Both the position numbers and the translations under genes were made by a program. From a virus (taxonomy: Duplodnaviria; Caudoviricetes): a stretch of 64,000 nucleotides of DNA. The stretch lies in IMG/VR virus record IMGVR_UViG_3300016744_000001; one strand, 5' to 3'. The notes under the pieces were generated by a model. That model did not search any database, was not told the DNA's origin, and saw only the letters and a list, made by a program, of their open reading frames with translations. Below, piece by piece: positions 1 to 18,730 of the stretch (the first letter of the stretch is position 1; every line of letters begins with the position of its first letter).

Positions 1-129
1 AGTTTTATAGATCTGATCAATCGCAAAATCTCGGCCATGGTGCAGTATGATTTTGTACTCAGCAGATAACCAAGTAAGAACCTGATCATTCTTCGCCCAG
101 CTGCATTTAACATCAAGATAGGGAAATTC

Positions 130-354
130 ATGAATACGAAACCTACTAAGGCTGCAAAAGCGTTTGTCGATACCAAAGCTCACTTGTTTGAAGAAGAGAT
201 CTTCATGTTTGTCGCAGCTTCCAGAAAGGCTGCTGAAAAGGAACTGCGTGAGCGTTTCCCCAAACTGTGGATCGAAAAGACCGACGGGACGTATCGCTCG
301 GAGAAAGACGGAGAATGGCTCCTCTTCATCCGTGAAGAACCTGTGATCGGTTAA
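130..354 (+). CDS. hypothetical phage protein (74 aa)
   Basis: ORF track; weak SD (GGGA) upstream; no recognisable motif. Confidence 0.6.
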   Translation: MNTKPTKAAKAFVDTKAHLFEEEIFMFVAASRKAAEKELRERFPKLWIEKTDGTYRSEKDGEWLLFIREEPVIG

Positions 355-360
355 AGATTT

Positions 361-684
361 CCGGCAGGGGTACTTAAAGCCGTGTGAAATGTCATACCGC
401 TTAAATTGGGTATTTGTAGGTTTGATGGACCTCTCCTACTTAACCCTGCCGGTCCAAATTGAGAGTCATGGACCCCTTCCAATATCGACCTCCTTGCTGT
501 GCTGCGTCGCATTGGCTCCTATCCCCATCATGACTCTCATTCATTTCTCTTCCTGCTCGGTAGCCGAAGTTGCTCCCCCTACCAGCTGACTGAGGTCTTG
601 CAGGAAGAGAATAAACCTCAATGTTCACCGTCAACAACAGCGTGGTGTCTGATCAATCAACACTCATGTCGAGCACTGAGGTTT
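361..684 (+). ncRNA. putative multi-domain structured small RNA with C-rich (anti-SD-like) loops
   Basis: Four back-to-back closed stems (361-369/444-452, 460-470/529-539, 545-556/600-611, 613-620/677-684); inner stems contain G-U pairs valid only on + strand; no credible CDS. Confidence 0.65.
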
Positions 685-697
685 TCTTGTTTTATTC

Positions 698-730
698 TAG
701 TGGCACCAACCGTCGGGGTTGGTGCCACTA
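698..730 (+). terminator. 14-bp perfect hairpin, putative terminator
   Basis: tagtggcaccaacc-gtcgg-ggttggtgccacta. Confidence 0.6.
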
Positions 731-771
731 TGACGACAATTTTGAGCATGCATTTTTCTTTTGGAGGAACA

Positions 772-1317
772 ATGTTAATCTATACTGGAATTGGCAGTCA
801 AAAGACTCCACCAGACATGTGCATGCTAATGACTGACATCGCTAAGCAATTAGCAAAACGTTGGTTCTTACGCAGCGGCTATGCTGATGGTGCAGACAAG
901 GCATTTGGAAAAGGAGCTTATCAAGTTAATGCTCCCCAAGTACATTACCTTCCTTGGGCTGGGTTCAACCATGCACCAAAGGACAATCACATCTTTAAGC
1001 CTTTGGATAAATTGCCTAGCCACTTGGTGCTACAAGCAACTGAGATGGCGGCACAGCTGCACCCCAATTGGGCAGCCTGTGGACAAGGGGCAAGAAAGAT
1101 GCACACCAGAAATATGTTTCAGGTATTGGGAGATGATCTAAATACTCCCACCGACATGGTGGTGTGTTGGACTCCAAAAGGATCTGGTTCTGGTGGTACA
1201 GGGCAAGCAATGCGTTTAGCCAAAAAGTTAGATATTCCAGTCTTCGATTTGGCAATTGCTGGGACTCTGGAGGCAATGTTAATTTTCGTATCTGAAAAAG
1301 AAAACACAGAGGTGTAG
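772..1317 (+). CDS. SLOG/DprA-Smf-like Rossmann-fold phage protein
   Basis: SD GGAGG then ATG at 772; motifs YTGIGS, LRSGYADGADKAF, VVCWT...GGTGQAMRLA...IPVFDL. Confidence 0.8.
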   Translation: MLIYTGIGSQKTPPDMCMLMTDIAKQLAKRWFLRSGYADGADKAFGKGAYQVNAPQVHYLPWAGFNHAPKDNHIFKPLDKLPSHLVLQATEMAAQLHPNWAACGQGARKMHTRNMFQVLGDDLNTPTDMVVCWTPKGSGSGGTGQAMRLAKKLDIPVFDLAIAGTLEAMLIFVSEKENTEV

Positions 1318-1321
1318 AATT

Positions 1322-1651
1322 ATGAATCTACCCGGGATATTCGAACCACGAAAACGGCTTTTCGCCGCTCATTTTTGGTCACAACGATCACTTGGGCGTA
1401 ATATTCGGTCATGCTGGGTTGAGTCTGAAGTTAACAGAATACTGAATGAACAGTATTCTGGCCAGTTGTTTGACTTCCTATTTGATCCCAACAAGTACAC
1501 CAGTCGGATGATTATCAGCCACACTGAAATTAAGAAACAGAGAGTCTATTCATGGGGATACACCTGTGATGCGCTTTCACCAAAAAATGGCTATTTTAGT
1601 GAATGCGTGATGCTGGTGGTTGACCGACTAATGGAGAAGGTGTATGGATAA
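1322..1651 (+). CDS. hypothetical protein
   Basis: ORF with GAGGTG SD, in tight operon. Confidence 0.7.
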   Translation: MNLPGIFEPRKRLFAAHFWSQRSLGRNIRSCWVESEVNRILNEQYSGQLFDFLFDPNKYTSRMIISHTEIKKQRVYSWGYTCDALSPKNGYFSECVMLVVDRLMEKVYG

Positions 1652-1913
1652 GTGGACCAAACTGGATGTCATTGGTATGATCAACTGGGTGTTGCTGATT
1701 GTAGCGATATTGCTGCCGATTAAGTTGCCCCATCCGTATTGGGGGATGTTTGAAATGGTCGCATGGGCAATGCCGCTGTTGGTTAGTGGTACACCAGATT
1801 GGGTTTTCCCAGAATGGATAACCAAGTGCCTAGAAATATTGGCATGGATCGCTTATGGAATACTCATTGGTGGAAACCTTTATCTGATTAGTCTTTGCTG
1901 GAGGGTGATATGA
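1644..1913 (+). CDS. small membrane protein
   Basis: hydrophobic segments; overlaps neighbouring ORFs by a few nt. Confidence 0.7.
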   Translation: MDKWTKLDVIGMINWVLLIVAILLPIKLPHPYWGMFEMVAWAMPLLVSGTPDWVFPEWITKCLEILAWIAYGILIGGNLYLISLCWRVI

Positions 1914-2146
1914 AACTAGCAATTCTTAAAGGACTCCATCGAGGACTTCACACCAGAAGAGCCGAGACTCACAAAAATTGTGGTATTTTCCAGCAAAACA
2001 TACCGGGTTATCAAAAGCAAACAAAGCTGATGATACTACGTGCGTTTGCCAGGTCAAATCGAACTCAATCGGCGTTTGTCATCGCGCACAACAAAGAACT
2101 AAATTACTCAATGAAGGTGATGCATGGAGATACCAGAAATCAGTAA
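1910..2146 (+). CDS. small basic hypothetical protein
   Basis: GGAGGG SD; ATGA start-stop overlap at 1910. Confidence 0.6.
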   Translation: MKLAILKGLHRGLHTRRAETHKNCGIFQQNIPGYQKQTKLMILRAFARSNRTQSAFVIAHNKELNYSMKVMHGDTRNQ

Positions 2147-2504
2147 GATTGAGGATCTGGATATACAGATCAAGGCAATTATCACCAAGGCAATCCAAGA
2201 TCCAACCGTGATCCCCGCATACCTGCAGCTGCAGTTGGGAAAGCTGGCTAAGGCACAAGAAGGGTTGTCAGCGATGCTGCTGACTGTGGAAGATGGTTGT
2301 GAAGCGAATACCCGTAAACAGCTGGTGAACACCATGCGATCGGTGGTCCATCAAAACCGGATCATCCAGCATGTGATCAACGTGATCTTGGTCTATATTG
2401 CTAGCGGTGATTATGACAACGCCGCTCACGGTGCAGCACTGCGTGCTGGGGCTGATGCCAGAACAGTCCTGAAGGATGTTTGGAACAAGAAGTTCAAAGA
2501 GTAA
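2124..2504 (+). CDS. hypothetical helical protein
   Basis: GAAGGTG SD; 126-aa ORF. Confidence 0.7.
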   Translation: MEIPEISKIEDLDIQIKAIITKAIQDPTVIPAYLQLQLGKLAKAQEGLSAMLLTVEDGCEANTRKQLVNTMRSVVHQNRIIQHVINVILVYIASGDYDNAAHGAALRAGADARTVLKDVWNKKFKE

Positions 2505-2535
2505 GTTCTGACACCGTGGAGTATTTTGTGTATAA

Positions 2536-2612
2536 GCTAGCGTAGCTCAATTGGCAGAGCAGCTGATTTGTAATCAGCAGGTTTGTGGGTTCAAGTCCCA
2601 TCGTTAGCTCCA
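2536..2612 (+). tRNA. trnT: tRNA-Thr(TGT)
   Basis: acceptor GCTAGCG/CGTTAGC, anticodon arm gctga-tt TGT aa-tcagc, GTTCAAGT T-loop, encoded CCA. Confidence 0.95.
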
Positions 2613-2622
2613 GTGTAAATAA

Positions 2623-2697
2623 TGGGGCTTCGTCAAGCGGTAAGACAACAGACTTTGACTCTGTCATTCACTGGTTCAAATCCAGTAGTCCCAGCCA
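2623..2697 (+). tRNA. trnQ: tRNA-Gln(TTG)
   Basis: acceptor TGGGGCT/AGTCCCA, anticodon arm acaga-ct TTG ac-tctgt, GTTCAAAT, encoded CCA. Confidence 0.95.
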
Positions 2698-2714
2698 AAT
2701 ATTCGAGAGGTAAC

Positions 2715-2966
2715 ATGAACCGCAGCGAGATCTTTGAACGTGTGAAGTTGTGTGTGTCGAAGCACACTGAGGTCGAAGCTGACCTGATCACTGAGCAGTC
2801 AATGTTGGCCGAGGAGTTGAACTTTGATTCGATTGCCTTGATTGAACTGGGCATGGAAATCGAAGAACAGTTTCAGGACATTAAAAAGCTGGATATTCCT
2901 GAAGGGGATATCATCGGCTGGTTTGATGTTGAAGAAATCGTGACTTATCTCGAGCAAGTCCTGTAA
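2715..2966 (+). CDS. acyl carrier protein (AcpP-like)
   Basis: 83 aa, acidic; phosphopantetheine-site motif LNFDSIALIELGMEIEEQF; SD GAGG, ATG at 2715. Confidence 0.85.
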   Translation: MNRSEIFERVKLCVSKHTEVEADLITEQSMLAEELNFDSIALIELGMEIEEQFQDIKKLDIPEGDIIGWFDVEEIVTYLEQVL

Positions 2967-2968
2967 GC

Positions 2969-3002
2969 TACTCATCCCACACCAACTGGTGTGGGATGAG
3001 TA
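2969..3002. terminator. perfect palindromic hairpin
   Basis: tactcatcccacacca-ac-tggtgtgggatgagta. Confidence 0.6.
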
Positions 3003-3055
3003 TATTTTGTACAAAGTTTTTTCTTTGTATCTAATCAAGAATTTACGAGGTCATT

Positions 3056-4816
3056 ATGAAGTTATCTGTCAAGTTGACAGGCTTGTCAACAACACTGACT
3101 CTGTTTACAATTATCGTTGGGGTACTAGCGATACTTGGAATGTCAAACATTAACCGTGAAACACAAGACTTGGCGAAGAACTGGTTACCATCAGTCAAGT
3201 CAGTCAGTGAGCTGTCAGATGCGGTTAACGAGTTCAGACGAGATCAGTTGGCTAAGATCATTGTCAACATCAACAACAACAATGAGTTAGTTGTTGAGTA
3301 CAACCAGAAGACTGACAATGACTCAGCTCGTGTACAACGGCGAATGGATCGTTATGCGAAGTTGATCAGTGAACCTGAAGAACGAGTGGCGTTTGAGGAT
3401 TTCAAGATCGCTTGGCAAAAGTACATGGTTATCAATCAACGAATTGAAGTCCTGCTGTTACAAAACAAACCACAGGAAGCTGGCACACTGTTGTTTGGGG
3501 ATGCTCGGGTGATCTACAATACGGCACTATCAAATCTGCTTAAAGCGATCTCAATCAATGACCAAGGGTCAAGTCAATCAGCTGCTAAGGCGAGTGACGA
3601 GTACTCTCGTAGCCGATTGATCACATTGATCTTGACAGTAGTGTCCACGCTGATCGCGATCATGTTTTCAGTATTGTTGATCAGAGTAGTTCTCAAACAG
3701 TTGGGGGAAGACCCGGGGTATCTGTACGAAGTCTCCATGGAGATTGCGAATGGAAACCTTGATGTCAAGTTGAAGTCATTTGTGGGTGAGGGTGGTGTAT
3801 ACGGTGCACTCACGAAGATGGTCGCAACTTTGAAAGCTAAGATCAAAGAAGCTGAAGAGAAGTCAGCTCAGGCTGCACAAGAAGCGCAGTTTGCGAAAGA
3901 AGCCACTGCGGTTGCTGAAGAAGCAACTCAGAAAGCTCAACGTGCCAGAGCTGAAGGCATGATGCAAGCGGCAAAACAGCTGGAAGAAGTTGTGACTATT
4001 TTGACAACAGCGTCTGAAGAACTGTCAGCGCAAGTGGAACAATCTCGTCGAGGAGCAGATGATCAGTCTGGTCGGGTACGAGAAACAGCAACTGCAATGG
4101 AAGAGATGAACGCAACTATCTTGGAAGTAGCAGGGAATGCTCAACATGCAGCTGAAGCGTCCACACAGACCAGACAGCAGGCAATTGAGGGTACCACCAT
4201 TGTTGCTGATGTTGTCAAGAGCATTGAGTCCGTCAGAGTCCAGTCAGCTGGGATCAAGTCAGATATGGACATGCTTGGTAAACAAGCACTGGCAATTGGT
4301 CAGATTCTTAATGTGATTGCCGACATTGCCGACCAGACGAACCTGCTTGCTTTGAATGCCGCCATTGAAGCTGCCCGTGCAGGTGATGCTGGTAGAGGGT
4401 TTGCAGTGGTCGCTGATGAGGTTCGTAAACTTGCTGAAAAATCAATGACTGCTACTCAAGAAGTTGGGAAAGCAATCAATGACATTCAGGAAGGAACTAA
4501 AAAGAATATTGCTGGGGTTGAGAGCAACACTGTTGCAATTGAACAGGTAGCTTTGTTGTCAACTCAGTCTGGTGAAGCATTGACCAAAATCCTTGAGTTT
4601 GTTAACCATGTGAACGATCAAGTGCAATCAATTGCCACTGCTTCAGAAGAACAGTCAGCGGCAAGCGAAGAGATCAATCGTTCTGTGGAAGAAGTGGCAA
4701 CAATTTCCAACGAGACATCAGTTGCTATGGAACATGCCTCAGGTTCAGTTGCTAAACTGTTGCAACAAGTTCAAGTACTTCAGAAGCTCATCACTGAATT
4801 GAAATCAGCTAAATAA
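3056..4816 (+). CDS. methyl-accepting chemotaxis protein (2 TM helices, four-helix-bundle sensor, signalling domain)
   Basis: signature [36 protein letters not shown]; NWLPSV periplasmic 4HB start; methylation helices ATAMEEM and [12 protein letters not shown]. Confidence 0.95.
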
Positions 4817-4820
4817 TTCA

Positions 4821-4854
4821 TCAGTACTACACCCTGAAGAGGGTGTAGTACTGA
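4821..4854. terminator. 15-bp perfect hairpin
   Basis: tcagtactacaccct-gaag-agggtgtagtactga. Confidence 0.6.
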
Positions 4855-4875
4855 GAATCGTAAAGATTTAAGGAA

Positions 4876-4883
4876 TATATTAC
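4876..4883 (+). promoter_or_regulatory. putative early promoter TATATTAC
   Basis: exact match to the phiKZ early promoter consensus; follows a terminator and precedes an operon. Confidence 0.6.
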
Positions 4884-4943
4884 TTAACAGATCGTGACAA
4901 CTTTTATGTTAACAATCAAACCAAAACTAAACGAGGGAATCAC

Positions 4944-6974
4944 ATGGATTTCAAATTGATCAAGGATGCTGTTGCAGCGCAGTTTGCCAAGATGGTCAAG
5001 GAAGATGGCAACCTGTTTGTGGTCGACGTCGAACGTGACACCATCTGGGAAAGCTATCTTGGCAGTTTTCCTGAAGGGACCAACCCGATCTACCGCGTCC
5101 GCCGGGAGTACGATTGCTCCATCTGCCGTCAGTTCGTGCGCGTGCTCGGCGGGGTGGTTTCGATCAATCCCCAAACTTTGAAGGTTTCTTCCATTTGGGA
5201 CATCACCGTATCCGAACCGGCATTCCAGGCGGTGGCGGATGCCATGTCCAACCTGATCCACTCCAAGCCGATCGTTAATGCGTTCCGTCATTCGGAACAT
5301 CGCATTGGTGCCGACTTCACCATGGCCTTGTTTGAAGACAAAACCACCCCGGTCAAATTTGACCACTTCTTTGCAAACCTGCCAGGGTTTGCGTTTGTCC
5401 ATGACAAAGACTACGGAACGGTTCTGTCGCAGTACCGCTCCGGCTACGACGTGTTCAAACGCGGTTGTGTCGAACTGACGTCGGAAGCGTTCGACACGGT
5501 TCTTGAGCTGATCGCTCAGAACTCGCTCTATCGCGGTGAAGAATTCACCGGCGTAATCAACGCCTTCTACAACCTGAAGAAAAAACATGACGCGCTTCCG
5601 GAAGACCAGCGGGAAGCTTTCCTGTGGCTTTCAGCCGTCACCCAGCCGGCCAGTGTGCTGCGTTTCCGCAGCATGGCAATTGGCCAGCTCATCATCGACC
5701 TGTCGGACGATGTTGAACTCGAAGCTGCTGTCAGCTCTTACGAGCGCATCACCGCTCCCACCAACTATCGCCGCCCGACTTCTCTGGTCAGCAAAGCAAT
5801 GGTTGAACGGGCCAAACAGACCATTACTGAACTCGGTCTGGAATCTGCTCTTGCCCGCCGCTGTGCGACCATCGATGACATCCCTGTCGTCGATGCAATC
5901 TTTGTGGACCGTAACCAGGTCACCAAACTGGAAGACGATCCCTTTGACGTTCCAACCACGGGCAATAAGAAGCAGGACTTCAAACAGGTGCAGGAAATCA
6001 CCATCGACAAGTTCATTACCGAAGTGGTGCCCACCGCCACCAAGCTTGAAGTGCTTCTGGAAAACAAACTGACCAAGAATTTGGTCACGATGACCACTGC
6101 GGTTGACCCGACCGCACCCGGCATGTTCAAGTGGAACAATCCCCTTGCTTGGGCCTACGTTGGTGACGTCACCGACTCGATCAAAGAACGCGTGAAAAAC
6201 GCTGGTGGCAACATCACGGCGGATCTCTGCTGCCGCCTGTCCTGGGACAACACGGATGACCTTGATCTGCACATGATCGAACCTTCCGGGTTCGAAGTGT
6301 ATTTCCGTGAGAAGATGTCCCCCAGTGGCATGCAACTTGACGTTGACATGAACGCCGGCCACCAGCCGTTGAGCACTGAACCGGTGGAAAACATCTTCAT
6401 GCATTCTGAGCACGGTCTCAGCCAGAACGGTGTTTACCGCCTGTTTGTGCACAACTTCAACCGCCGTAACGGTGACTCCCGTGGTTTCACTGTGGAAATT
6501 GATTTCAAGGGCAGCGTCAAGACTTTCTGCTGCGACAAGGTGATTCCCACACATCACGCCGTCGAAGTGGCCAAGTTCAAGTACGTTCCCGGCGAAGGGA
6601 TCGTGATCATCGAATCTCTGCCTGAAAGCAATGCCAGCAAAGAAGTGTGGGGGCTGACCACGAACAACTTTGTTCCGGTGAAAGCCCTGGTCAAGTCTCC
6701 CAACCATTGGGGTGACAACAACATCGGCAACCAGCATTACTTCTTCATGCTGGATGATTGCATCAATCCCAACAGTGTTCGTGGTTTCTACAACGAATTC
6801 CTGCGGGAAGATCTCACTCAGCACCGCAAGGTGTTTGAACTGGTTGGCACCAAAGCTAAGGCCGAATCCACGCCCAACCAGCTGTCCGGTGTCGGTTTCT
6901 CGACCACACAGCCGGCACAGCTTCTTGTTCGGGTCACGGGTACCTTCACCCGTGTGCTTCGTGTAACCTTCTAA
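4944..6974 (+). CDS. conserved large phage protein (676 aa) with CxxC and a C-terminal DLDLH (YfaP-like) beta domain
   Basis: SD GAGGG; YDCSICRQF; LSWDNTDDLDLHMIEP...LDVDMNAG...PVENI. Confidence 0.75.
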   Translation: MDFKLIKDAVAAQFAKMVKEDGNLFVVDVERDTIWESYLGSFPEGTNPIYRVRREYDCSICRQFVRVLGGVVSINPQTLKVSSIWDITVSEPAFQAVADAMSNLIHSKPIVNAFRHSEHRIGADFTMALFEDKTTPVKFDHFFANLPGFAFVHDKDYGTVLSQYRSGYDVFKRGCVELTSEAFDTVLELIAQNSLYRGEEFTGVINAFYNLKKKHDALPEDQREAFLWLSAVTQPASVLRFRSMAIGQLIIDLSDDVELEAAVSSYERITAPTNYRRPTSLVSKAMVERAKQTITELGLESALARRCATIDDIPVVDAIFVDRNQVTKLEDDPFDVPTTGNKKQDFKQVQEITIDKFITEVVPTATKLEVLLENKLTKNLVTMTTAVDPTAPGMFKWNNPLAWAYVGDVTDSIKERVKNAGGNITADLCCRLSWDNTDDLDLHMIEPSGFEVYFREKMSPSGMQLDVDMNAGHQPLSTEPVENIFMHSEHGLSQNGVYRLFVHNFNRRNGDSRGFTVEIDFKGSVKTFCCDKVIPTHHAVEVAKFKYVPGEGIVIIESLPESNASKEVWGLTTNNFVPVKALVKSPNHWGDNNIGNQHYFFMLDDCINPNSVRGFYNEFLREDLTQHRKVFELVGTKAKAESTPNQLSGVGFSTTQPAQLLVRVTGTFTRVLRVTF

Positions 6975-6991
6975 TCAAAAGGACCATCACC

Positions 6992-7411
6992 ATGTCTGAC
7001 ATCTTTGAACGCGCTTCCCGTGAACGTCTCCGCATCGACACCCCTGCTGGTGCTCTTACCGTTGAAGACCTGTGGACTGTTCCCCTGCGCTCGCGCACTC
7101 CCAACAGCCTCAGCCTTGATCTCATTGCCAAGGACGTCTACACCGAGCTGAAGAAGCAGGAAGAGATCACCTCTTTTGTGGATGACGATGCGGCGCCGTC
7201 GAAGCAGAAGGCCACCCTTGAACTCGCCATGGACATCCTCAAGCACATCATCGCCTATCGCAAGGCTGAAAGTGCTCGCCAGGAAGACCTCCAGAAGAAG
7301 AAGGCTCTCCAGCAGAACCTCCTCCGCATCAAGGCCGACCGCCAGGCCGCGAACATGGAAAACCTCACCGACGAGGAACTGGACAAGATGATCGCCGACT
7401 GCAGCAACTAG
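6992..7411 (+). CDS. conserved phage hypothetical protein
   Basis: N-terminus IFERASRERLR...LTVEDLW resembles a widespread small phage family; SD AAGGA. Confidence 0.75.
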   Translation: MSDIFERASRERLRIDTPAGALTVEDLWTVPLRSRTPNSLSLDLIAKDVYTELKKQEEITSFVDDDAAPSKQKATLELAMDILKHIIAYRKAESARQEDLQKKKALQQNLLRIKADRQAANMENLTDEELDKMIADCSN

Positions 7412-7425
7412 CTGCATGGTTAACC

Positions 7426-7454
7426 GGGGCAGCAGCCATGCGGGTTGTTGCCCC
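7426..7454 (+). terminator. GC-rich hairpin with G-U pairs
   Basis: ggggcagcagcc-atgcg-ggttgttgcccc followed by ttt. Confidence 0.5.
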
Positions 7455-7478
7455 TTTACAGTGAATGAGGAATAATCC

Positions 7479-7730
7479 ATGGTCATTGACGTTGTTTTGA
7501 CAGCGCTCATTTTCACTGTGATCATCATCATCTTGGCGAACACCATCATCCCTTGGATGTTTCCATCACTTTCGTATTGGTGGTTGTTCAAGAAAAGTAA
7601 GGTTGATGAAGCACATCGGAATAAATCCACAGTGGTTGAAGAAGTTGTTGCTAACGAAATTAACAAAGAAACCGGACGACTTGAAAAAGTACTTGTCAGG
7701 TCAACCGGAACCAATAAAGAAGGTCAGTAA
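7479..7730 (+). CDS. small single-TM membrane protein
   Basis: N-terminal hydrophobic helix; stop overlaps the SPFH start. Confidence 0.75.
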   Translation: MVIDVVLTALIFTVIIIILANTIIPWMFPSLSYWWLFKKSKVDEAHRNKSTVVEEVVANEINKETGRLEKVLVRSTGTNKEGQ

Positions 7731-9073
7731 TGCAGCTCCCTGAAAATCTGATTACCAAGTATGGCCGGAAGGTCATCGGCAGTGTTGTTATTGTCGTGTC
7801 GTTGGTCCTTGGTTGGATAATGGCATCCAATTTGTGGGAAAACATTCCCGCTGGCTACATTGCTGTTATCCAGTCGCCGGTTACTGGTGAACTCACCGTG
7901 CATACTGAACCGGGCATGAAGTGGCAGGGTTTCGGCAGTGTTACCTTGTACCCTCGCACTGGTCTGTTTGAATTTACCCAGCCGGTCAATCCTTACTCGG
8001 AAAACAAAGCTGAAGCTGCCAGGTACGACAAGGCCAACGACAACTCGCACAAGATCACCTTCAATGACGGCGGCGAAGCCTACATCTCTGGCTCCATCAG
8101 GTACGATTACCCCATGGACAAAGAGAAGATCGAGCTGCTGCACCGCATGTTCTACGGGCACGATGCGGTTATCAAAGGCTTGGTTGCGAAGACTATGGAA
8201 CGTGCGGTGTACATGAGCGGCCCGCTTATGACATCGATCGATTCTTTCATGTCACGTCGTTCCGACCTGCCCATTCTTATTGAAGACCAAGCCCGAAACG
8301 GTCTGTACCGCGTGATCACCAAGGATGTCATCTTGGTGGATGAATTCACCAAAGAACGCAAGCAGATCAAACAGGCTGAGCCGGTAAAAGATGCTGATTC
8401 CCCGAACGGGTTCCTCCGCCAGGATGAATCGATTATGACCAAGTATGGTCTTTCGCTGGCCAACCTCAGCATCACCGTTAACTATGACCCCAAAGTACAG
8501 GGTCGTGTGAACGCTCTGTTTGCTGCTGCCTCGGACATTCAGATCGCAACAATGAACGCCAAGAAAGCAGAACAGGATCGTAAGACGGCGGCCGAACAAG
8601 GCCAAGCCACTGCCACCACTGCTGAATGGCGCGCCAAAGCGATTGCTGCTGAAGAAATCGCTCGTGCTGAAAAAGAGAAGAGTGTGAAGATCCTTGAAGC
8701 CGAAAAGGATCGTGCCTCTGCCGTTATTGCTGCTGAGAAAGAACTGCAGGTTGCTGATCTTGATCGCAAAACGGCCATCGCTTATAAGGACTCACAGCTG
8801 CAGCGCGCTGAAGGTGACGCCACATATAAGCGCAAGGTCATGGAAGCTGACGGTGCACTCACTCCCAAGTTGGATGCGTACATTGAAGTGAACAAGATCT
8901 GGGCTGAGGCCTTTGCGGCTTACAAAGGTAACTTTGTTCCGCAGTTCGTGATGGGCAGCGGCGGCCAAAATGGGCAGTCGAATACCGCCCAGGACTTCAT
9001 GAACATGATGATGATGAAAACCAGCAAGGACCTTTTGGGTGATGCTGGTGGCATGGCCGTTCGCCAGAAGTAA
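7730..9073 (+). CDS. SPFH/Band-7 (flotillin/prohibitin-like) membrane protein
   Basis: N-terminal TM, IPAGYIAVIQ...EPG beta region, Ala/Glu/Lys coiled coil, C-terminal VPQFVMG. Confidence 0.85.
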   Translation: MQLPENLITKYGRKVIGSVVIVVSLVLGWIMASNLWENIPAGYIAVIQSPVTGELTVHTEPGMKWQGFGSVTLYPRTGLFEFTQPVNPYSENKAEAARYDKANDNSHKITFNDGGEAYISGSIRYDYPMDKEKIELLHRMFYGHDAVIKGLVAKTMERAVYMSGPLMTSIDSFMSRRSDLPILIEDQARNGLYRVITKDVILVDEFTKERKQIKQAEPVKDADSPNGFLRQDESIMTKYGLSLANLSITVNYDPKVQGRVNALFAAASDIQIATMNAKKAEQDRKTAAEQGQATATTAEWRAKAIAAEEIARAEKEKSVKILEAEKDRASAVIAAEKELQVADLDRKTAIAYKDSQLQRAEGDATYKRKVMEADGALTPKLDAYIEVNKIWAEAFAAYKGNFVPQFVMGSGGQNGQSNTAQDFMNMMMMKTSKDLLGDAGGMAVRQK

Positions 9074-9083
9074 ACAATAACTC

Positions 9084-9114
9084 CACTGACCGGCAGGATT
9101 CCTGCCGGTCAGTG
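9084..9114. terminator. perfect palindromic hairpin
   Basis: cactgaccggcagga-t-tcctgccggtcagtg. Confidence 0.6.
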
Positions 9115-9127
9115 ATAAGGAAGTGTC

Positions 9128-9665
9128 ATGCTTAAAATCTTTATGTTGTTGATGTGTTTTTTGTTTGAACCCATGATCAGTTATGCCGCTCCCACTGTGT
9201 TTCTCAACATCCTGAAGGAAGCTGCAGCTGACCAGATGGTTGCCGAAGGACTCTACCTTTGACCTTGATCGCTATCCGCCAGAGCAATACATTGAAGGAC
9301 CAGCAAATGCCTGGCGAGTATCCATTGATGCTCGAGAAGGTGAAACCCAACCGTCGTTGTCCTTCGAAGAAGCAGATAACTATCGTTGGATTGATTGGTG
9401 CGCTGGGGATTCCTGGTTAAGTGGGCACAGTGGCATTGCTCCATTCGACTTTGCTCCGCCAGACGAGTCGATCATCGCCATCCCCATGAAGCACAACAAA
9501 GATCGGGCACCGCGTGAATGGACTGATGAGTACCGCATGATGGTGCAGATCAAGCACAAAAACAAAATCCCACCATCTCCTCCAACGGCTCTCAGCCGAA
9601 GAGTGGAGATGTATGAAAACGCTGCAAAGATCATCAGAGCCAGACAGATAGCGAAATCTGAATAG
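9128..9665 (+). CDS. putative exported protein split by a +1 frameshift at CTT-TGA-C (9257-9263), or a pseudogene
   Basis: 44-codon ORF with SD AAGGAAG and signal-peptide-like N-terminus ends CTT TGA C; the +1 frame is open to 9665 and has no good SD of its own. Confidence 0.5.
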
Positions 9666-9703
9666 TTGGTTTTGATTTTCTGAATTGTAGTATGTAGAAA
9701 TAC

Positions 9704-9793
9704 GGAGCGATGGCAGAGTGGTTTATCGCGGCGGTCTTGAAAACCGTTGATGGCTAATCCCATCCGGGGGTTCAAATCCCTCTCGCTCCGCCA
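9704..9793 (+). tRNA. trnS: tRNA-Ser(TGA)
   Basis: acceptor GGAGCGA/TCGCTCC, anticodon gcggt-ct TGA aa-accgt, long variable arm, encoded CCA. Confidence 0.95.
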
Positions 9794-9870
9794 GAAAAAA
9801 CTAATGGGGTTGTGAGTGTTGAAAAGAGTCTCAGCAATTTGCTAAGGGGCTCGCTAACACTGGAGGACGT

Positions 9871-10131
9871 ATGTCCAAAAACACAACTCCTACTTGGAAG
9901 GTGTCACGAATCCATGGAACTGACGATGAGTACGTCATCCATTGGATTCAAGATGGGAAAGCGGTGCGAACCTCAGCGATTGTAGCTGTGAAGATTCTCG
10001 ATGACAACATCGAAGTCTTGACATACTCCACACGTCGCAGAGTGTACGAGAAGCACAATTTCTCCATCAGTGATGCTGCTACTCCGATGAGTGTACTGTT
10101 CTTACAGTTGCATTTCACCGGTAAGAAGTAA
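9871..10131 (+). CDS. hypothetical protein
   Basis: SD GGAGG; 86 aa. Confidence 0.7.
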   Translation: MSKNTTPTWKVSRIHGTDDEYVIHWIQDGKAVRTSAIVAVKILDDNIEVLTYSTRRRVYEKHNFSISDAATPMSVLFLQLHFTGKK

Positions 10132-10168
10132 ATAAAAGACCAGCGGGTATCTCGCTGGTCTTTTATTT
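10130..10168 (+). terminator. hairpin with U-tract (intrinsic terminator)
   Basis: aaataaaagaccagcg...cgctggtcttttattt. Confidence 0.7.
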
Positions 10169-10184
10169 TTTATTGGAGGAGTTT

Positions 10185-10586
10185 ATGTCAACAGTTAGAG
10201 ATTACATTGATCGGTTGAACTGTGATGTGAATGGGAATGATCATTACCCACTGTACACGTTACAGAGTTTCTTCAAGATTGCTACTGGGTATAACCGAGT
10301 GGTGATTGGTGATCGGGGACCGTATGTTGAGATCCTGACACACCAGTTGATTGATGACTGCTTTGAAATGCCAATGGGAGAGACTTGGCGGTTAGGATCA
10401 AGGAATGCGTTCTATCTTGAATATCGCACCGTCAGGGATTATGTTAAGATTTACCACCAGCTCAAACCAGTTGACTATGCTGATTATATTCCTTACCGGT
10501 ACTACGTCTCACCATTTGAACTGTGTGATATGTTTGGTACGGCATTGATTACGAAGCTTCCCCGAAGAAGAAAAAATAATTCTTAA
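10185..10586 (+). CDS. hypothetical protein (IATGYNRVVIGDRGPYVE family)
   Basis: SD GGAGGAG, ATG at 10185. Confidence 0.75.
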   Translation: MSTVRDYIDRLNCDVNGNDHYPLYTLQSFFKIATGYNRVVIGDRGPYVEILTHQLIDDCFEMPMGETWRLGSRNAFYLEYRTVRDYVKIYHQLKPVDYADYIPYRYYVSPFELCDMFGTALITKLPRRRKNNS

Positions 10587-10603
10587 TCGATGTGATCAAT
10601 AGA

Positions 10604-10896
10604 TGTGAGAGGATACTCTCCAGCTCTCACACCTTCAGTGATCAGACCAAGCAGGGTATGTCTGGAATCGTGCTCTAGCTCTGGAAGATCATCTGACCCG
10701 GATTGGAAAAGATTGCCAGTTACTAAGGTTATTGCTGCTCCAAATTGCGCCGACAACAATTTGTTGAGCACACCTGGTTCGGTGATTGATTTCAGTCCAC
10801 TCTAGGAACAGACAACCTGCCCGTTTGTTCCTTTGGTTCCTGCCTTCTACCTGCCCTCCCCCGTGGTACCCCACTCCCTTGTTAGGGAGTGGGGTA
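10604..10896 (+). ncRNA. putative structured RNA (multi-hairpin, pyrimidine-rich tail) ending at a terminator hairpin
   Basis: stems 10604-11/10624-31, 10643-47/10660-64, 10736-47/10757-70, 10804-13/10823-32; three CCTGCC motifs; terminator 10867-10896. Confidence 0.55.
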
Positions 10897-10930
10897 TTGT
10901 CCATGGTGTATTTGTTTTTTATTTTAAGGA

Positions 10931-10938
10931 TATATCAT
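10931..10938 (+). promoter_or_regulatory. putative early promoter TATATCAT
   Basis: same TTTAAGGA context as the 4876 site. Confidence 0.5.
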
Positions 10939-10991
10939 TAGTATAGTCAGTGGCAGTTATAACAACAACCTTCATGATATCTGGAGTATTC

Positions 10992-12662
10992 ATGGATCGT
11001 CAACAATTGTTGGCTCAGCTTAATGAACTGAAGTCAACCGAGCGCAAGAGCAAAGTTGAACGGTATGATCCTGATGGCAACTTTATCGGTGAACAGGATA
11101 TCACCGCACAACAGTACGAGGAAACTCGTTATGTTCCACCGGACCCGTACGACTTTGAGTTCGACACGTCGGAAGTCGATGCCCAAAAGCAGAAGTACGA
11201 AGAAGCAAAGGCAAAGAAAGCCGCTACAAAACCTGACTCTCAGCCAGACGACACCGAGACTACCGGTGATGGTAATGGCGCTGAATCACAACCGCAAGAA
11301 AGCCAGAGTGGTCAGGGTGGTCAATCTGGACAGTCCCAGAATGGTAATGGTGAAGAGCAGTCACCAATGACCAAGCAGACTTTGGAAGAACTCCAGAAGC
11401 AGCTGGATGAAGCCAAAGTTGAATGTGAAGAAGGTCTTGCCGAAGATCCGGATAGTAAAGAACTGCAGGAATCCAAACAACAGCTGGACAAACTGCAGGA
11501 AAAGCTGGACGCACACAAGCAGGCTTTGGCCGAGCAGCAAGGACAGAATGGTGATCCCAATCAGGAACAGCAGTCGGGGCAGCAGCCTAACGAATCTGGT
11601 TCTGAACAATCGGATCAGCAGAATGGTCAGTCTGAAGAAAAGAACGACCAGTCTGGGGATGCTGAATCCGAAGACAAACAGGACAAGCCTGATCAGCAAG
11701 ACGGTCAGCAGGATGACAAGTCTGAGGAAGCGTCTGACAAAGAAGACGAATCCAAGAAAGAAGCTGAAGAGCAAAAAGAAGATCAGCAGCAGACTCCTCA
11801 ACCTGAACCTGAAAAGCCGGAACCTGAACAAAAGAAAGAGGAACAGAAAGAAGAAGAACTTGTTCCTCCAGATCAGGCTTACTACAAACCGTCTTGGTAC
11901 CAGGACATGAAGAACCTGGTGATGATGGGATTTGATGTTCTCGTGTGTGGCCCGGCCGGTTGCGGTAAGTCTCGTGCTGGTCGTGAGATTGGTCGGGAAT
12001 TGAAGAAGCCTGGCAACACTCACGCGTTTCGTGCGGGGATGCGCAAGTCTGAACTGCTGTACTCCAAGGAACTCCGTGGTGGCGACAGCGTGATCGAACT
12101 GTCCCCTCTGCTGCGTGAAGTTCAGAAACCTCTCATCACAGTGATCGACGAAGCCTTGTCAGTTGACCCGGAAGTGTTGATCTGCTTCAACGGCCTGCTG
12201 GAATCTTCTCAGCGCAGTGTTGACACTCCGATTGGTGAAGTGGTGCGGGATAAAGAACATCGGTTCATCCTGACCAGCAACACTGACGGCCGTAGTGAAT
12301 CACGCATCTATCGTGCTCCTCAGATGCAGGATGCTTCCATCCTGTCTCGTGTCATGGTCATGAATGTTGACTATGATGAAAAGGTGGAATGCAACATCGC
12401 TTGTTCTTCCGGCGCCCCCGCTTGGAAGTACATTGTTCACAACACGCATGCTCTGCGAAAGGCAGTGCGCAAAGCTGACATGGTGATGGACATCTCCACT
12501 CGTTGGATTGTTCAGGCATGCAAGCTTAACAAAGCTGGGGTCGCTCGTGAAAAGGCGTTTGCTATGGCGATGCTTGACCGCTTCAACGAGAACGAGCTGA
12601 AGAAGCTGCAGGGCATGGGGACAACCATTGACTTCAGTGGTGCATCGAAGCTGCAAAAGTAG
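10992..12662 (+). CDS. MoxR/CbbQ/CobS-like AAA+ ATPase with long Q/E-rich disordered N-terminus
   Basis: Walker A GPAGCGKS, Walker B ITVIDE, sensor-1 LTSNT, QDASILSR. Confidence 0.85.
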   Translation: MDRQQLLAQLNELKSTERKSKVERYDPDGNFIGEQDITAQQYEETRYVPPDPYDFEFDTSEVDAQKQKYEEAKAKKAATKPDSQPDDTETTGDGNGAESQPQESQSGQGGQSGQSQNGNGEEQSPMTKQTLEELQKQLDEAKVECEEGLAEDPDSKELQESKQQLDKLQEKLDAHKQALAEQQGQNGDPNQEQQSGQQPNESGSEQSDQQNGQSEEKNDQSGDAESEDKQDKPDQQDGQQDDKSEEASDKEDESKKEAEEQKEDQQQTPQPEPEKPEPEQKKEEQKEEELVPPDQAYYKPSWYQDMKNLVMMGFDVLVCGPAGCGKSRAGREIGRELKKPGNTHAFRAGMRKSELLYSKELRGGDSVIELSPLLREVQKPLITVIDEALSVDPEVLICFNGLLESSQRSVDTPIGEVVRDKEHRFILTSNTDGRSESRIYRAPQMQDASILSRVMVMNVDYDEKVECNIACSSGAPAWKYIVHNTHALRKAVRKADMVMDISTRWIVQACKLNKAGVAREKAFAMAMLDRFNENELKKLQGMGTTIDFSGASKLQK

Positions 12663-12673
12663 TGAGGTGATGC

Positions 12674-13456
12674 ATGGAAACCGTACAGGAGTGGATTGAC
12701 AACCCACATGGTGGAGTTGTCTGGTTTCACGGGATGGACTTCTTGCAATACGTCATGAAGAATGAACCGAGGCAATCAGCCTTCCAGAATTCTTCATTGG
12801 GGCATTACAGGACCAATTACGACAATTTTGTCAGTAAGGTTAAAGAATACCGATTTGATCGGGAACGACTGAGCATCACCATGGAACAGGTGTTGTCTCG
12901 TCCACGAAAGCGGAACAAGTACCGGACATCTGTGGATGGTGATGACTTGGATGTTGATTCGTACATTGAAACGTTTGGTGAAACCAGTCCAAAGATCTGG
13001 GATGAACCTTACAAGATCGTGTGCGAACGCCGCCAGGCCGTCAATGTCTATTTTGAATGTTCAGTTCCGTGGGTATCCCGTAAACAAACATACATCGCTA
13101 ACCGGCAACATCTTGCTTACAATATCGCATTGAACTGTGAGCAGGATGGTGTACCTTGTCGAATCGTGACGTGTTACGGTGTGCGAGTCAGCGAGGTCAA
13201 GCAAGCAATCGTGTTCCACATTGTCATAAAAGACTTTGACGAACCGATCTACCCACCACTGTGGGGGGTGTTTCTGAACAATGAAACAACGAACACAGCG
13301 GTCAACTTGTTGTCTGAAATGGTCATTGGGACTGGACAGGATGGAAACGGCTTAGTTGTACCATTCGTCATCCAGCCCACTGAGAATGAAGAGTTCCAAG
13401 TGCTTGACCTTAAAAGCTGTGAATACATGCAGATCAAAAAGAAAGGCAGGGATTAA
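12674..13456 (+). CDS. degenerate VWA/CobT-like partner protein
   Basis: adjacent to the MoxR ATPase; DGDDLDVDSYI motif followed by beta-alpha VWA-like pattern; MIDAS degenerate. Confidence 0.55.
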   Translation: METVQEWIDNPHGGVVWFHGMDFLQYVMKNEPRQSAFQNSSLGHYRTNYDNFVSKVKEYRFDRERLSITMEQVLSRPRKRNKYRTSVDGDDLDVDSYIETFGETSPKIWDEPYKIVCERRQAVNVYFECSVPWVSRKQTYIANRQHLAYNIALNCEQDGVPCRIVTCYGVRVSEVKQAIVFHIVIKDFDEPIYPPLWGVFLNNETTNTAVNLLSEMVIGTGQDGNGLVVPFVIQPTENEEFQVLDLKSCEYMQIKKKGRD

Positions 13457-13457
13457 T

Positions 13458-13491
13458 GGCTAGAGGGAGTGTTTTCCCACTCCCTCTAGCC
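13458..13491. terminator. 14-bp perfect hairpin
   Basis: ggctagagggagtg-ttttcc-cactccctctagcc. Confidence 0.6.
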
Positions 13492-13514
13492 TATAGTAAA
13501 ATAATGGAGGACTA

Positions 13515-14582
13515 ATGATTTTTCCTAAAAAGATGGATCATGTGGTCATCGTCTATCATCGGATCGATATGGACGGTGTTTGCTCGGGTACGATTGCTTC
13601 CATGGCGGCACATGTTCACAATAATAAGGCAATCGTGTCTACAGTTGGGTATGATCATGTTGACCCGCTTGAAAAGCTGGAGTCGAAGATCAATGCCTGT
13701 GGCGAGTTTGATCTGATGATTGTTGTCGACTGCACTCTGCCGGATGTTTTGCTCGATCGGTATGCAGAGAAGATGATCATTATTGATCATCATGACTCAG
13801 GTATCGAACGAGCCGCTCTCTATGCAGATCGCTTCTATGGCCACTGTTTGCGTCTGAACGACGCCAGTGTTCTGGATTGGGCTGGCAACATGGCGAAGAA
13901 AGCCGCTGCCTGCGAACTCGCATGGAACTACTTCTTCCGCAATGAACGGATGCCGTACATTGTGCGTTTGTGCGGTCGGTACGATGTGTACAATCACAAC
14001 GACGACACGCTGGCGTTCAATGAGCGTTGTCGAGACATCAACATCCAGCACCAGAACTTCACTTACATGGGCGGCGATCTGCTCCATCGTGAAGATGCCC
14101 CGGATATTTGGTTTCCGAAGTTGTTCTTGGATGAACTCACATTCCAGTCAGGACGACTCACTCAAGAACTCTGCGATGGTCAGTTGACTTTGCACTATGC
14201 CAAAAAGTTCAATGCTCGTGATTGTCAGGATGGTGCAAAGGAATTCACGATTCGTGGAACTGATTTGGTCGCCTTGGTGGCAAATCAGGCTGGCCGCAAT
14301 TCCAAGTTCTTTCAGTCCAAATGGGACCCCACCAAACATGACCTGATGATCTTCTTTTCCTACAACCTGAGTAATCAGGTGTGGAAGGTTGGGTTGTTCA
14401 CAGACGATAAGGAAGTGGACATGTCCAAGGTCTTTGCGATTGTTCTCAACAATCCGAAGAATAAAGTCAATGGTCGGTACGGTGGTCACATGCGAACTGC
14501 CTGTGGATATGTCACTGATGACATACAGGAAGATCTCCTGCAGTATCTCATCAAAAACACGCCTGAGTACGTGAAGGATTAG
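13515..14582 (+). CDS. DHH-family phosphoesterase
   Basis: YHRIDMDG, IVVD, IIDHH and C-terminal GGH motifs. Confidence 0.9.
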   Translation: MIFPKKMDHVVIVYHRIDMDGVCSGTIASMAAHVHNNKAIVSTVGYDHVDPLEKLESKINACGEFDLMIVVDCTLPDVLLDRYAEKMIIIDHHDSGIERAALYADRFYGHCLRLNDASVLDWAGNMAKKAAACELAWNYFFRNERMPYIVRLCGRYDVYNHNDDTLAFNERCRDINIQHQNFTYMGGDLLHREDAPDIWFPKLFLDELTFQSGRLTQELCDGQLTLHYAKKFNARDCQDGAKEFTIRGTDLVALVANQAGRNSKFFQSKWDPTKHDLMIFFSYNLSNQVWKVGLFTDDKEVDMSKVFAIVLNNPKNKVNGRYGGHMRTACGYVTDDIQEDLLQYLIKNTPEYVKD

Positions 14583-14584
14583 TC

Positions 14585-15052
14585 ATGGAACGGTCAAGTT
14601 GGGATTCCTACTTCATGCGGATTGTGCAGCAGGTTGCCACACGGTCGACTTGCTCTCGTCGACAGGTTGGTGCCGTTGCGGTGCGCAACCATCGCATCCT
14701 TGCCACGGGTTACAATGGTGCTCCTGGTGGACTGAAGCATTGTGCTGAAACTGGTTGTCTGCGCCAGAAGATGAACATTCCTTCTGGTGAACGGCATGAG
14801 ATCTGTCGAGCTTTGCATTCTGAGCAGAACCTGATTTTGCAGGCAGCTACCGGTGGTTTGGACATCACTGGTGCTGACATCTATTGTACCACGCATCCGT
14901 GTGTGATCTGTGCAAAGCTTTTGATCGGGTGCAAAGTCAACAAGATCTACTATCTTGACGAATACTGCGACCCGTTGGCAAAGGAAATGTTGCAGGAAGC
15001 TGGAATCGAAACCCAGCGCTTGCAGGAAGTTCATCCCGGAGAATTTTGGTAA
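14585..15052 (+). CDS. dCMP deaminase (ComEB-like)
   Basis: RSTCSRRQVGAV, TGYNG, HSEQN, PCVIC. Confidence 0.95.
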   Translation: MERSSWDSYFMRIVQQVATRSTCSRRQVGAVAVRNHRILATGYNGAPGGLKHCAETGCLRQKMNIPSGERHEICRALHSEQNLILQAATGGLDITGADIYCTTHPCVICAKLLIGCKVNKIYYLDEYCDPLAKEMLQEAGIETQRLQEVHPGEFW

Positions 15053-15054
15053 CC

Positions 15055-15082
15055 GCAGAAGGGGCAAGATTGCCCCTTCTGC
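15055..15082. terminator. perfect palindromic hairpin
   Basis: gcagaaggggcaa-ga-ttgccccttctgc. Confidence 0.55.
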
Positions 15083-15098
15083 ATTTATCGAGGGCAAT

Positions 15099-15689
15099 AT
15101 GGAAAATTCAACATCAAAATCATCGAACTGGTATTATCCCTTGACCGCACAGCTCTTAGAGCTGATTGTAAGTGTGCTACTTTATCCGAATGATTACGCT
15201 AAATTGAAGTACGAGATTGAAACTTTTGCACTGGGTTGTGAGCAGGTTAACCACAATAAAAATGATGCCTTACAGTACTTTACCATGATTGCTGACCAGT
15301 TTGACCGAGTTGTGACCGATTTCATGGTTAACTCAGAAATGCAAAAGCTGAACAAGTTTGGAACAGCAGATTACGATCGTGGTCTTGTGCAGAAGGTATT
15401 CAATTTGTTGGTACGACTTTCACAATACCCGGTTGAAATAGCCTTTATTGAGGAACGGCCGCAAAGTGATCAGATTGATGTTGTCTTTAAACTTAGTCAG
15501 CTTGAGTTTATCACGATTGTTGCATCAAGATCCAGAACTGGTGATGTGACGATGCATCATCTCACTGAAAGTCTGTCAAGTGAAGCTAAGCTGAAACGTG
15601 GTTCAACACTAGGTATGGAAATTTGTGCAGCGATGTTTCAGGTCTTAGCTGAACTCGCAATACATTGGAGGGGATATGAACGTCGTTGA
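15099..15689 (+). CDS. paralogue family A, copy 1
   Basis: YPLTAQLLELIV...EIETFALGCEQV shared with the next two ORFs. Confidence 0.75.
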   Translation: MENSTSKSSNWYYPLTAQLLELIVSVLLYPNDYAKLKYEIETFALGCEQVNHNKNDALQYFTMIADQFDRVVTDFMVNSEMQKLNKFGTADYDRGLVQKVFNLLVRLSQYPVEIAFIEERPQSDQIDVVFKLSQLEFITIVASRSRTGDVTMHHLTESLSSEAKLKRGSTLGMEICAAMFQVLAELAIHWRGYERR

Positions 15690-16275
15690 GCTGGGGTTGG
15701 GAACGAATGAACGGTTGTACCTACCGTTGGTCCAACATTTGTTTGACTTGATTATTCTGATTCTGACGAGTCCGCATGATAAGAGATCGATTGAAACCGA
15801 TCTTGAGACGTTCATGTTGGGATGCAATCAGGTTGGACACAGCAGAAATGAAGTGATCCAATATTTTTCAAATATCACTGGTAACTCTGATCGGGTGGTG
15901 AAATCTCTGATGGAAATCCAATCAGATATTTTTGAGGAACCAGGAAGGTGGAGTCCAGTGGACTCCACCCGACATCAATTTTTACATCATCAGCTTGGAC
16001 GGCTTCAGCATTTTCCAGTGAGTGTTCCGATGTTTAAAAGATCAAACCGCGGCCAGAAAGTAATTTTCGAGCCTGAAGGTTTCAGGAATTTGGTAATTCG
16101 AACCCAGAACAATTGGACATCGTACATTGTTGTTACGGACATTCATGAGGCCACAGTCAAAGGAGAAGTGACAATCATGCGAGACGAGACCGTCTTACAG
16201 AGTCTTTTGGCGGCAGTAATCCAGCTCTTGCTAAGGATAAGTGAGAACTGGGCAGAAGAGAAAATCAAGGGATAA
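15676..16275 (+). CDS. paralogue family A, copy 2
   Basis: LPLVQHLFDLII...DLETFMLGCNQV. Confidence 0.75.
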   Translation: MNVVELGLGTNERLYLPLVQHLFDLIILILTSPHDKRSIETDLETFMLGCNQVGHSRNEVIQYFSNITGNSDRVVKSLMEIQSDIFEEPGRWSPVDSTRHQFLHHQLGRLQHFPVSVPMFKRSNRGQKVIFEPEGFRNLVIRTQNNWTSYIVVTDIHEATVKGEVTIMRDETVLQSLLAAVIQLLLRISENWAEEKIKG

Positions 16276-16287
16276 CGGGAAAAGAAC

Positions 16288-16869: not shown

Positions 16870-16873
16870 TAGA

Positions 16874-17473: not shown

Positions 17474-17474
17474 C

Positions 17475-18477: not shown

Positions 18478-18482
18478 CAACT

Positions 18483-18695: not shown

Positions 18696-18700
18696 ACTCA

Positions 18701-18730
18701 CTAGTGGGGCAGCATGTGCTGCCCCACTAG
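18701..18730. terminator. bidirectional terminator palindrome between convergent genes
   Basis: ctagtggggcagca-tg-tgctgccccactag. Confidence 0.7.

Follow-up and report, generated by a model that had tools for sequence, protein, structure and literature searches.

Transmembrane chemoreceptors with a four-helix-bundle (4HB) sensor are known from bacteria, and the closest described systems to the one considered here are the chromosomal 4HB receptors of Desulfovibrio, PcaY_PP and CtpM of Pseudomonas, VC1313 of Vibrio cholerae, MCP2201 of Comamonas, and Tar and Tsr of Escherichia coli. In studied receptors, CheA and CheW are contacted by the hairpin tip of the cytoplasmic domain. Discussions of phage accessory genes tend to centre on metabolism, defence, and host takeover, and the literature has almost nothing on phages that control host behaviour by way of chemotaxis: the jumbo-phage reviews and surveys consulted make no mention of it, our literature searches found no experimental study of a phage-borne chemoreceptor, and one preprint lists CheR and CheY along with a methyl-accepting chemotaxis protein (MCP) in phages of ammonia oxidisers, in passing. 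Here, we describe a full-length chemoreceptor gene at positions 3056 to 4816 of a 64,000-nucleotide (nt) stretch of the IMG/VR virus record IMGVR_UViG_3300016744_000001 (Duplodnaviria; Caudoviricetes), the whole of which is referred to below as the window.

We consider it probable (roughly 0.6) that this gene codes for a working transmembrane receptor of the 40H heptad class, captured by an ancestor of this phiKZ-like jumbo phage from a Desulfovibrio-type chromosome and kept as an accessory gene in a hairpin-bounded cassette; the receptor probably alters how infected cells sense and swim. The case is a clean one, with an intact receptor, a likely source lineage, a sister phage in which selection on the sensor can be followed, and independent phage lineages with the same orthologue. 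What it adds to the phage chemoreceptors already known is an origin in Desulfovibrio, a measurement of selection, and recurrence in more than one phage lineage.

Receptor architecture and selection

The features of the receptor gene and its cassette are as follows.

3056..4816, + strand: chemoreceptor coding sequence (P0001), an open frame of 586 amino acids (aa)
3077..3145, + strand: first transmembrane segment (TM1), about residues 8-30 in a hydropathy scan, with Lys2 and Lys6 on the predicted cytoplasmic side
3146..3613, + strand: predicted periplasmic four-helix-bundle sensor, residues 31-186, from Pfam 4HB_MCP_1, the AlphaFold2 model, and Foldseek
3614..3685, + strand: second transmembrane segment (TM2), about residues 187-210 (hydropathy peak at about 186-210)
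3692..3859, + strand: HAMP-like linker, residues 213-268, with the family-conserved block QLGEDPGYL...IA.GNL...GVYG
3860..4813, + strand: cytoplasmic signalling domain, predicted class 40H, from the ungapped PcaY alignment and a motif scan
4322..4441, + strand: hairpin tip, residues 423-462, invariant in ten aligned sequences
2969..3002, + strand: gene-end hairpin of the upstream open reading frame (ORF), which resembles an acyl carrier protein (ACP) gene; 16-bp perfect stem followed by a T-rich tail; 5' boundary of the cassette
3003..3055, + strand: AT-rich leader and putative promoter; TATATT abuts the hairpin, and a GAGG ribosome-binding site lies at 3047-3050, 5 nt before the ATG
4821..4854, + strand: gene-end hairpin of the chemoreceptor gene; 15-bp perfect stem and 4-nt loop, starting 5 nt past the stop codon

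The sequence-only reading had described an intact MCP with the order TM, 4HB, TM, and signalling domain, and this is borne out by Pfam domains, two hydrophobic segments, and a model of the sensor. The 4HB_MCP_1 family (PF12729) matches residues 1-183 with 74.7 bits (cut-off, 27), MCPsignal (PF00015) matches residues 367-550 with 161.7 bits (cut-off, 34.6) over profile positions 2-171 of 172, and a PHROGs family whose function is not annotated (phrog_8572) covers the receptor at full length (E = 1e-72). We prefer the 586-aa start to the 558-aa call of the JGI record because the N-terminal MKLS.KL is kept in the bacterial orthologues. Cysteine is absent from the protein, which rules out a CXXCH haem motif, and a C-terminal tethering pentapeptide is lacking as well. 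Between TM2 and the signalling domain, where a HAMP domain would be placed, residues 213-268 form a conserved block that is common to all orthologues.

The conserved CheA/CheW-binding tip and methylation helices that had been claimed from the letters alone are likewise present. Residues 423-462 are identical in 10/10 aligned sequences (four from phages and six from bacteria, Desulfovibrionaceae), and the tip aligns with those of TM1143 and Tsr. Motifs with the methylation consensus [ASTG]-x-x-[EQ]-[EQ]-x-x-[ASTG] begin at residues 318 and 346 in the N-terminal helix and at 528/529 in the C-terminal helix and are kept across the receptor family; they place Glu pairs at 321/322, 349/350, and 531/532, with a possible fourth at 538/539, giving three or four predicted methylation sites.

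Against the sequences of solved structures, the signalling domain (residues 307-564) aligns without a gap over 258 residues to P. putida PcaY (residues 273-530), where it matches E. coli Tsr, the phage stretch has 29 residues (about four heptads) more than its Tsr counterpart, and three small indels separate the receptor from Thermotoga TM1143; the alignment to the CtpM model is of equal length. Given the heptad classes of these references, which we take to be 40H for PcaY and CtpM, 36H for Tsr, and 44H for TM1143, the alignments place the phage receptor, by prediction, among the 40H receptors. In an AlphaFold2 model built with 33 homologues, residues 28-192 form mainly four long helices arranged as a bundle, with a predicted local distance difference test score (pLDDT) of 90.6. 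The best Foldseek match of the modelled sensor is VC1313, with a template modelling score (TM-score) of 0.88, followed by MCP2201, Tsr, Tar, and PcaY, and the nine residues that never vary in an alignment of 33 sensor sequences are all retained by the phage receptor.

Selection could be gauged by comparison with a sister phage, represented by a 4.9-kb Logan contig with 79% nucleotide identity that is colinear with the window from the tRNA/ACP-like gene through the receptor and into the next two genes. The two receptors are 88.7% identical as proteins, while their synonymous sites are saturated (proportion of differing synonymous sites, 0.69), and of the three genes compared it is the receptor that differs most at synonymous and least at non-synonymous sites. 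The ratio of non-synonymous to synonymous divergence (dN/dS; Nei-Gojobori), which the sequence-only reading had proposed to follow across related phages, is 0.039 for the receptor between the two lineages; the two phage genes that follow give 0.116 and 0.337. By parts, the receptor ratio is 0.04 for residues 1-210 (TM1, sensor, and TM2) and 0.038 for the signalling domain, and by these counts strong purifying selection acts on the sensor half and the signalling half alike. The sensor is 83% identical to that of the sister phage and, as the region that has moved furthest from the host, only 38-41% identical to those of the host orthologues, which are 61-71% identical among themselves, whereas the cytoplasmic part is 67-72% identical to the Desulfovibrio orthologues. 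As the alignments read, the pattern is one of fast change after capture, followed by tight constraint.

Phage context, flanking DNA, and origin

The receptor is a genuine phage gene whose composition has shifted to that of the phage. The window is phiKZ-like and, in PHROG and Pfam comparisons, codes for a multisubunit RNA polymerase (RNAP) beta subunit, virion proteins, a phiKZ-type internal head protein, ThyX, a DprA-like protein, and three tRNAs; the gene directly downstream of the receptor codes for a 676-aa protein with DUF8224 and has homologues in 548 phage records. An identical receptor is present on a 273,336-bp contig, and a 22-kb JGI metagenome contig from a different project is 99.96% identical in nucleotides to window positions 1-14817. 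Chimeric assembly or host contamination was considered and is ruled out by the two independent assemblies of the same phage together with the colinear sister phage. The continuity across the flanks that was suggested as a check thus holds both in the JGI contig and in the colinear sister contig, and the argument against host contamination stands on contiguous assemblies, the phage's own hairpins, phage-like codon usage, and a best bacterial match of only 59-61%.

We note that the codon argument made from the letters alone, namely that the receptor uses A/T-ending codons like its neighbours, holds only in part. The G+C content at third codon positions (GC3) is 0.43 in the receptor, the same as in the DprA-like gene upstream (0.43) and lower than the average of 0.53 over 22 long phage ORFs, but the three genes just downstream of the receptor are G/C-ending, with GC3 values of 0.61 to 0.74. 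Relative synonymous codon usage in the receptor follows that of the same set of phage ORFs (correlation, r = 0.60) but not that of a Desulfovibrio gene set (r = -0.17), and the bacterial orthologue shows the opposite pattern. Elsewhere in the window, four consecutive ORFs on the + strand (15676-18086; 199, 193, 199, and 203 aa) match no Pfam family above threshold and may be tandem paralogues.

The cassette is bracketed by phage-type palindromes, as had been proposed: the perfect hairpins at 2969-3002 and 4821-4854 are two of 23 in window positions 1-64000 with stems of 12 to 18 bp, of which there are none in shuffled sequences. The majority of the remaining hairpins likewise begin within a few bases past a stop codon, and the hairpins are therefore gene-end signals that belong to the phage itself and form a genome-wide set. 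The upstream hairpin of the sister phage has an identical stem, and its apical AACT (a 2-nt loop and the closing pair) is replaced by AGAT, with two differences; in its downstream hairpin, the loop differs and one T:A pair of the stem has become C:G, a compensatory change. The leader (3003..3055) is nearly invariant between both phage lineages, though synonymous sites in the receptor are saturated. Alignments of the flanks are 95-96% identical between the lineages, and the intergenic stretches alone (2967-3055 and 4817-4943) are about 90% identical by our own count, whereas the flanking genes have differences at 46-69% of their synonymous sites. The conserved flanks, free loops, and compensatory stem change argue that the leader and terminator are functional, and the conservation of these two elements lends indirect support to expression of the receptor during infection; the conservation of the flanks against synonymous divergence could reflect strong non-coding constraint, a compositional shift (GC3 of 0.43 versus 0.34), or recombination.

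Two side observations concern this flanking DNA. The motif TATATTAC occurs twice in the window (4876-4883 and 22043-22050), and (C)ATATTAC occurs once (at about 58710), in each case upstream of a gene and just past a terminator hairpin; the copy at 4876 precedes the gene after the receptor. The ACP-like ORF on the other side of the cassette (2717-2966, + strand; about 83 aa) lies directly after tRNA-Gln, matches Pfam PP-binding with 22.6 bits (cut-off, 20.8) and a PHROG annotated as 'acyl carrier protein', and is kept in the sister phage; a longer frame (2622-2966) overlaps the tRNA and probably does not have the true start.

Among bacterial proteins, the best matches are full-length receptors of Desulfovibrio, 583 to 586 aa long and 59-61% identical, and no bacterial sequence exceeds 61%. 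In Desulfovibrio sp. QI0442 and a related metagenomic contig, the orthologue has a conserved chromosomal setting between flgA/flgH and fliJ. In quick-search trees of 116 and 33 sequences, the phage pair is fully supported, with a long stem, inside a fully supported clade of Desulfovibrio receptors; the phylogeny against host MCPs that had been called for thus nests the phage pair among them and gives no near-identity to a host locus. On these trees and identities, the gene is apparently an old capture from a Desulfovibrio-type chromosome and not a recent transfer.

For this uncultured 273-kb phage, the receptor phylogeny is the best host clue here. The phage appears to have no close cultured relative in INPHARED because megablast of window positions 1-12000 gave a tRNA match to a Bacillus phage and nothing else, and tblastn of the receptor gave only one weak match, to a metagenomic Acinetobacter phage. 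When 20 kb of window DNA (5001-25000) was compared with 301 Desulfovibrionaceae genomes, three kinds of match came up, namely a tRNA-Ser, a dCMP deaminase, and a 447-aa ORF. The tRNA-Ser (TGA anticodon; 9704-9793, + strand) is up to 89% identical to the tRNA-Ser of many Desulfovibrionaceae genomes, and the 447-aa ORF (7730-9073, + strand), a member of phrog_11908 with a weak 'lipoprotein' match, has 64-67% nucleotide matches in four Desulfovibrionaceae genomes. The latter is a second possible link to the Desulfovibrionaceae or their prophages.

Other phage-borne receptors and the proposed role

That MCPs are not typical phage genes, as the sequence-only reading put it, is true in general but overstated: at least two other phage lineages carry one, and the PHROG family spans the full length of the receptor. 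The same orthologue is present on a 161.7-kb IMG/VR contig (3300016725_000002; L007:10001-11746; GC, 0.32; 59% complete according to CheckV), where it follows a tail-sheath gene at a distance of 4.8 kb and closely precedes tail-fibre-type genes, with a tail-fibre-assembly-like gene two genes downstream. It is also present on a 7.5-kb contig (L010, 2226-3974; GC, 0.29), with tail-fibre genes on both sides and an adjoining NUDIX gene. These two contigs share nothing else with the window or its receptor locus, and the kind of locus differs from that in the window. The four phage sequences group together with 84-89% support in the Shimodaira-Hasegawa-like approximate likelihood ratio test (SH-aLRT) and long branches, a topology with the low-GC phage pair outside is not rejected by an approximately unbiased (AU) test (p = 0.167), and in both domains each phage copy shares more identity with host sequences than with the copy of the other phage lineage. 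These trees, the AU test, and the identities are compatible either with a single capture or with repeated capture by phages.

A different receptor is coded by the complete 286.7-kb IMG/VR phage 3300004151_000006, a distant phiKZ-like relative with 37% identity in the RNAP subunit and 49% in DUF8224. This protein (L015:6846-8876; 676 aa) has the order 4HB, HAMP, PAS, and signalling domain, its gene adjoins that of a DEAD-box helicase, and it is kept at 48-64% identity in two further syntenic contigs. In one of these contigs (L185:6742-8953) the gene is called as two ORFs, of 566 aa and a 168-aa signalling fragment, owing to a frameshift or an assembly error. A scan of IMG/VR with the single receptor protein gave no match; a scan with an alignment gave 164 contigs with mostly partial matches, many of them at the end of a DNA stretch, which we do not count as phage receptors.

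A search of two IMG/VR records, of which one is an estimated 59% complete, gave no CheW, and no Che partner turned up among the 30 ORFs scanned with Pfam in the 64-kb window; the receptor would therefore have to rely on host partners. It is plausible that it inserts into host arrays because the tip is invariant and the predicted length class is that of the host orthologue. During infection, the receptor would be made and inserted into the inner membrane, would join the host arrays through its unchanged tip, and would use the host CheA and CheW; the host CheR and CheB would adapt it at the conserved Glu pairs, and the input of the diverged periplasmic sensor would be added to the swimming decisions of the infected cell. 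The benefit is a matter of speculation, but the infected cell might be kept in, or moved to, conditions that suit a long jumbo-phage infection, such as a better energy supply, or be brought into contact with new hosts. If entry into the arrays is true, a virus can add sensory input to a bacterial navigation system, and these phages offer a natural set of re-tuned four-helix-bundle sensors for study.

More tentatively, and with the odds somewhat against it, several large phages of sulfate reducers, otherwise dissimilar in the DNA compared, may have captured chemoreceptors, re-tuned the sensor, and frozen the tip, such that steering would be recurrent and a navigation input would serve the virus. 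This wider proposal counts two or three lineages that share one Desulfovibrio orthologue and another that has the PAS-bearing receptor.

The invariant tip, which makes array entry plausible, would also suit a jammer of the host signal, that is, a dominant-negative or locked-output subunit that freezes or abolishes chemotactic control, for which the sensor is irrelevant and whose purpose could be, for example, to stop swimming, save energy, or cut flagellum-dependent superinfection. The phage records searched have no CheW of their own, and the candidate methylation sites are all Glu-Glu, where several host orthologues have Gln at one site, which could fix the signalling state. We regard jamming as unlikely, however, since residues 1-210 are as constrained as the signalling domain (dN/dS, 0.04), the sensor keeps 83% identity despite saturated synonymous sites, and all nine invariant sensor residues are kept; the methylation motifs and the HAMP-like block are also conserved, and for none of these features would a pure jammer have any need. 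Steering is preferred to jamming since the sensor half is itself under constraint, and the methylation sites are too.

An output other than motility is less likely still. Some bacteria run several Che-type pathways with non-motility outputs, and two Desulfovibrio genomes gave 23 and 42 matches to the receptor, leaving room for a host Che-like pathway unrelated to flagellar rotation; the cytoplasmic PAS domain of the distant relative suggests that sensing of internal state can matter to these phages, and the receptor could alternatively be an environmental sensor of the phage itself, timing lysis or development, for example. Against this, the bacterial orthologue lies among the flagellar genes flgA, flgH, and fliJ, which points to flagellar chemotaxis, and no downstream partner coded by the phage was seen in the ORFs and records scanned. 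That the gene is a recently acquired host gene without function, or a host-phage misassembly, is very improbable, even though chemoreceptors are uncommon in phages and the matches in the viral-contig scan are mostly partial and often terminal, given two independent assemblies and a colinear sister phage, no bacterial sequence above 61% identity, phage codon usage and terminators, and a dN/dS of 0.039.

We note that several points weigh against a working, captured steering receptor. Pfam HAMP (PF00672) is not reported for the receptor at E <= 0.01, and the ligand of the diverged sensor may have changed or been lost. Saturated synonymous divergence makes the dN/dS values approximate, yet they lie well below 0.1 for the receptor. 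Upstream of the receptor there is no exact TATATTAC motif, TATATTTTGTAC standing in its place, and no shared promoter motif can be assigned there. The scan for Che partners covered 64 kb of a 273-kb genome, and partners could be coded elsewhere in the phage. The suggested host follows only from the phylogeny of this gene and weak matches of a tRNA and one other gene, and no CRISPR-spacer-like match is among the matches listed for window positions 5001-25000 against the 301 Desulfovibrionaceae genomes.

Comparison with known systems

The phage receptor shares with E. coli Tar and Tsr (36H; PDB 1QU7, 3ZX6, and 6S1K) the overall plan of TM, 4HB, TM, a HAMP or HAMP-like linker, and hairpin, as well as the tip consensus and the methylation-site consensus, but is predicted to be 40H and is without a C-terminal pentapeptide of the NWETF type. 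Its sensor is closest in fold to that of V. cholerae VC1313 (PDB 8BSA and 8BSB), a 4HB sensor that binds D-Arg and D-Lys (TM-score, 0.88; root mean square deviation, 1.5 Å), and also resembles that of Comamonas MCP2201 (PDB 5XUA and 7WRM), a 4HB sensor that binds malate and citrate (TM-score, 0.69-0.77). Sequence identity of the phage sensor to these two is, however, only 13-18%, and their ligands are not transferable. Pseudomonas PcaY_PP (PDB 6S18 series) and CtpM (NCBIfam NF058645) are the best sequence matches among solved structures and NCBIfam models, with an ungapped signalling domain and presumably the same heptad class; neither is an orthologue, the CtpM score being 169 bits against an equivalog cut-off of 900 bits and the TM-score of the PcaY sensor in Foldseek being about 0.6.

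The other phage-borne receptors (those of L007, L010, and 3300004151_000006 and its relatives) are, like this one, lone receptor genes in large phages, but they occupy different loci, among tail-fibre genes or beside a DEAD-box helicase gene, and have differing sensors or domain sets. The nearest relatives remain the chromosomal 4HB receptors of Desulfovibrio (Desulfovibrio sp. QI0442, D. desulfuricans, and Desulfovibrio sp. UIB00), which have the same architecture and length without large indels, an identical tip, and the same methylation motifs, and in whose clade the phage gene nests. The phage pair is distinguished from them by a 3-residue insertion in the sensor, by phage codon usage, and by its location in a phage cassette rather than among flagellar genes.

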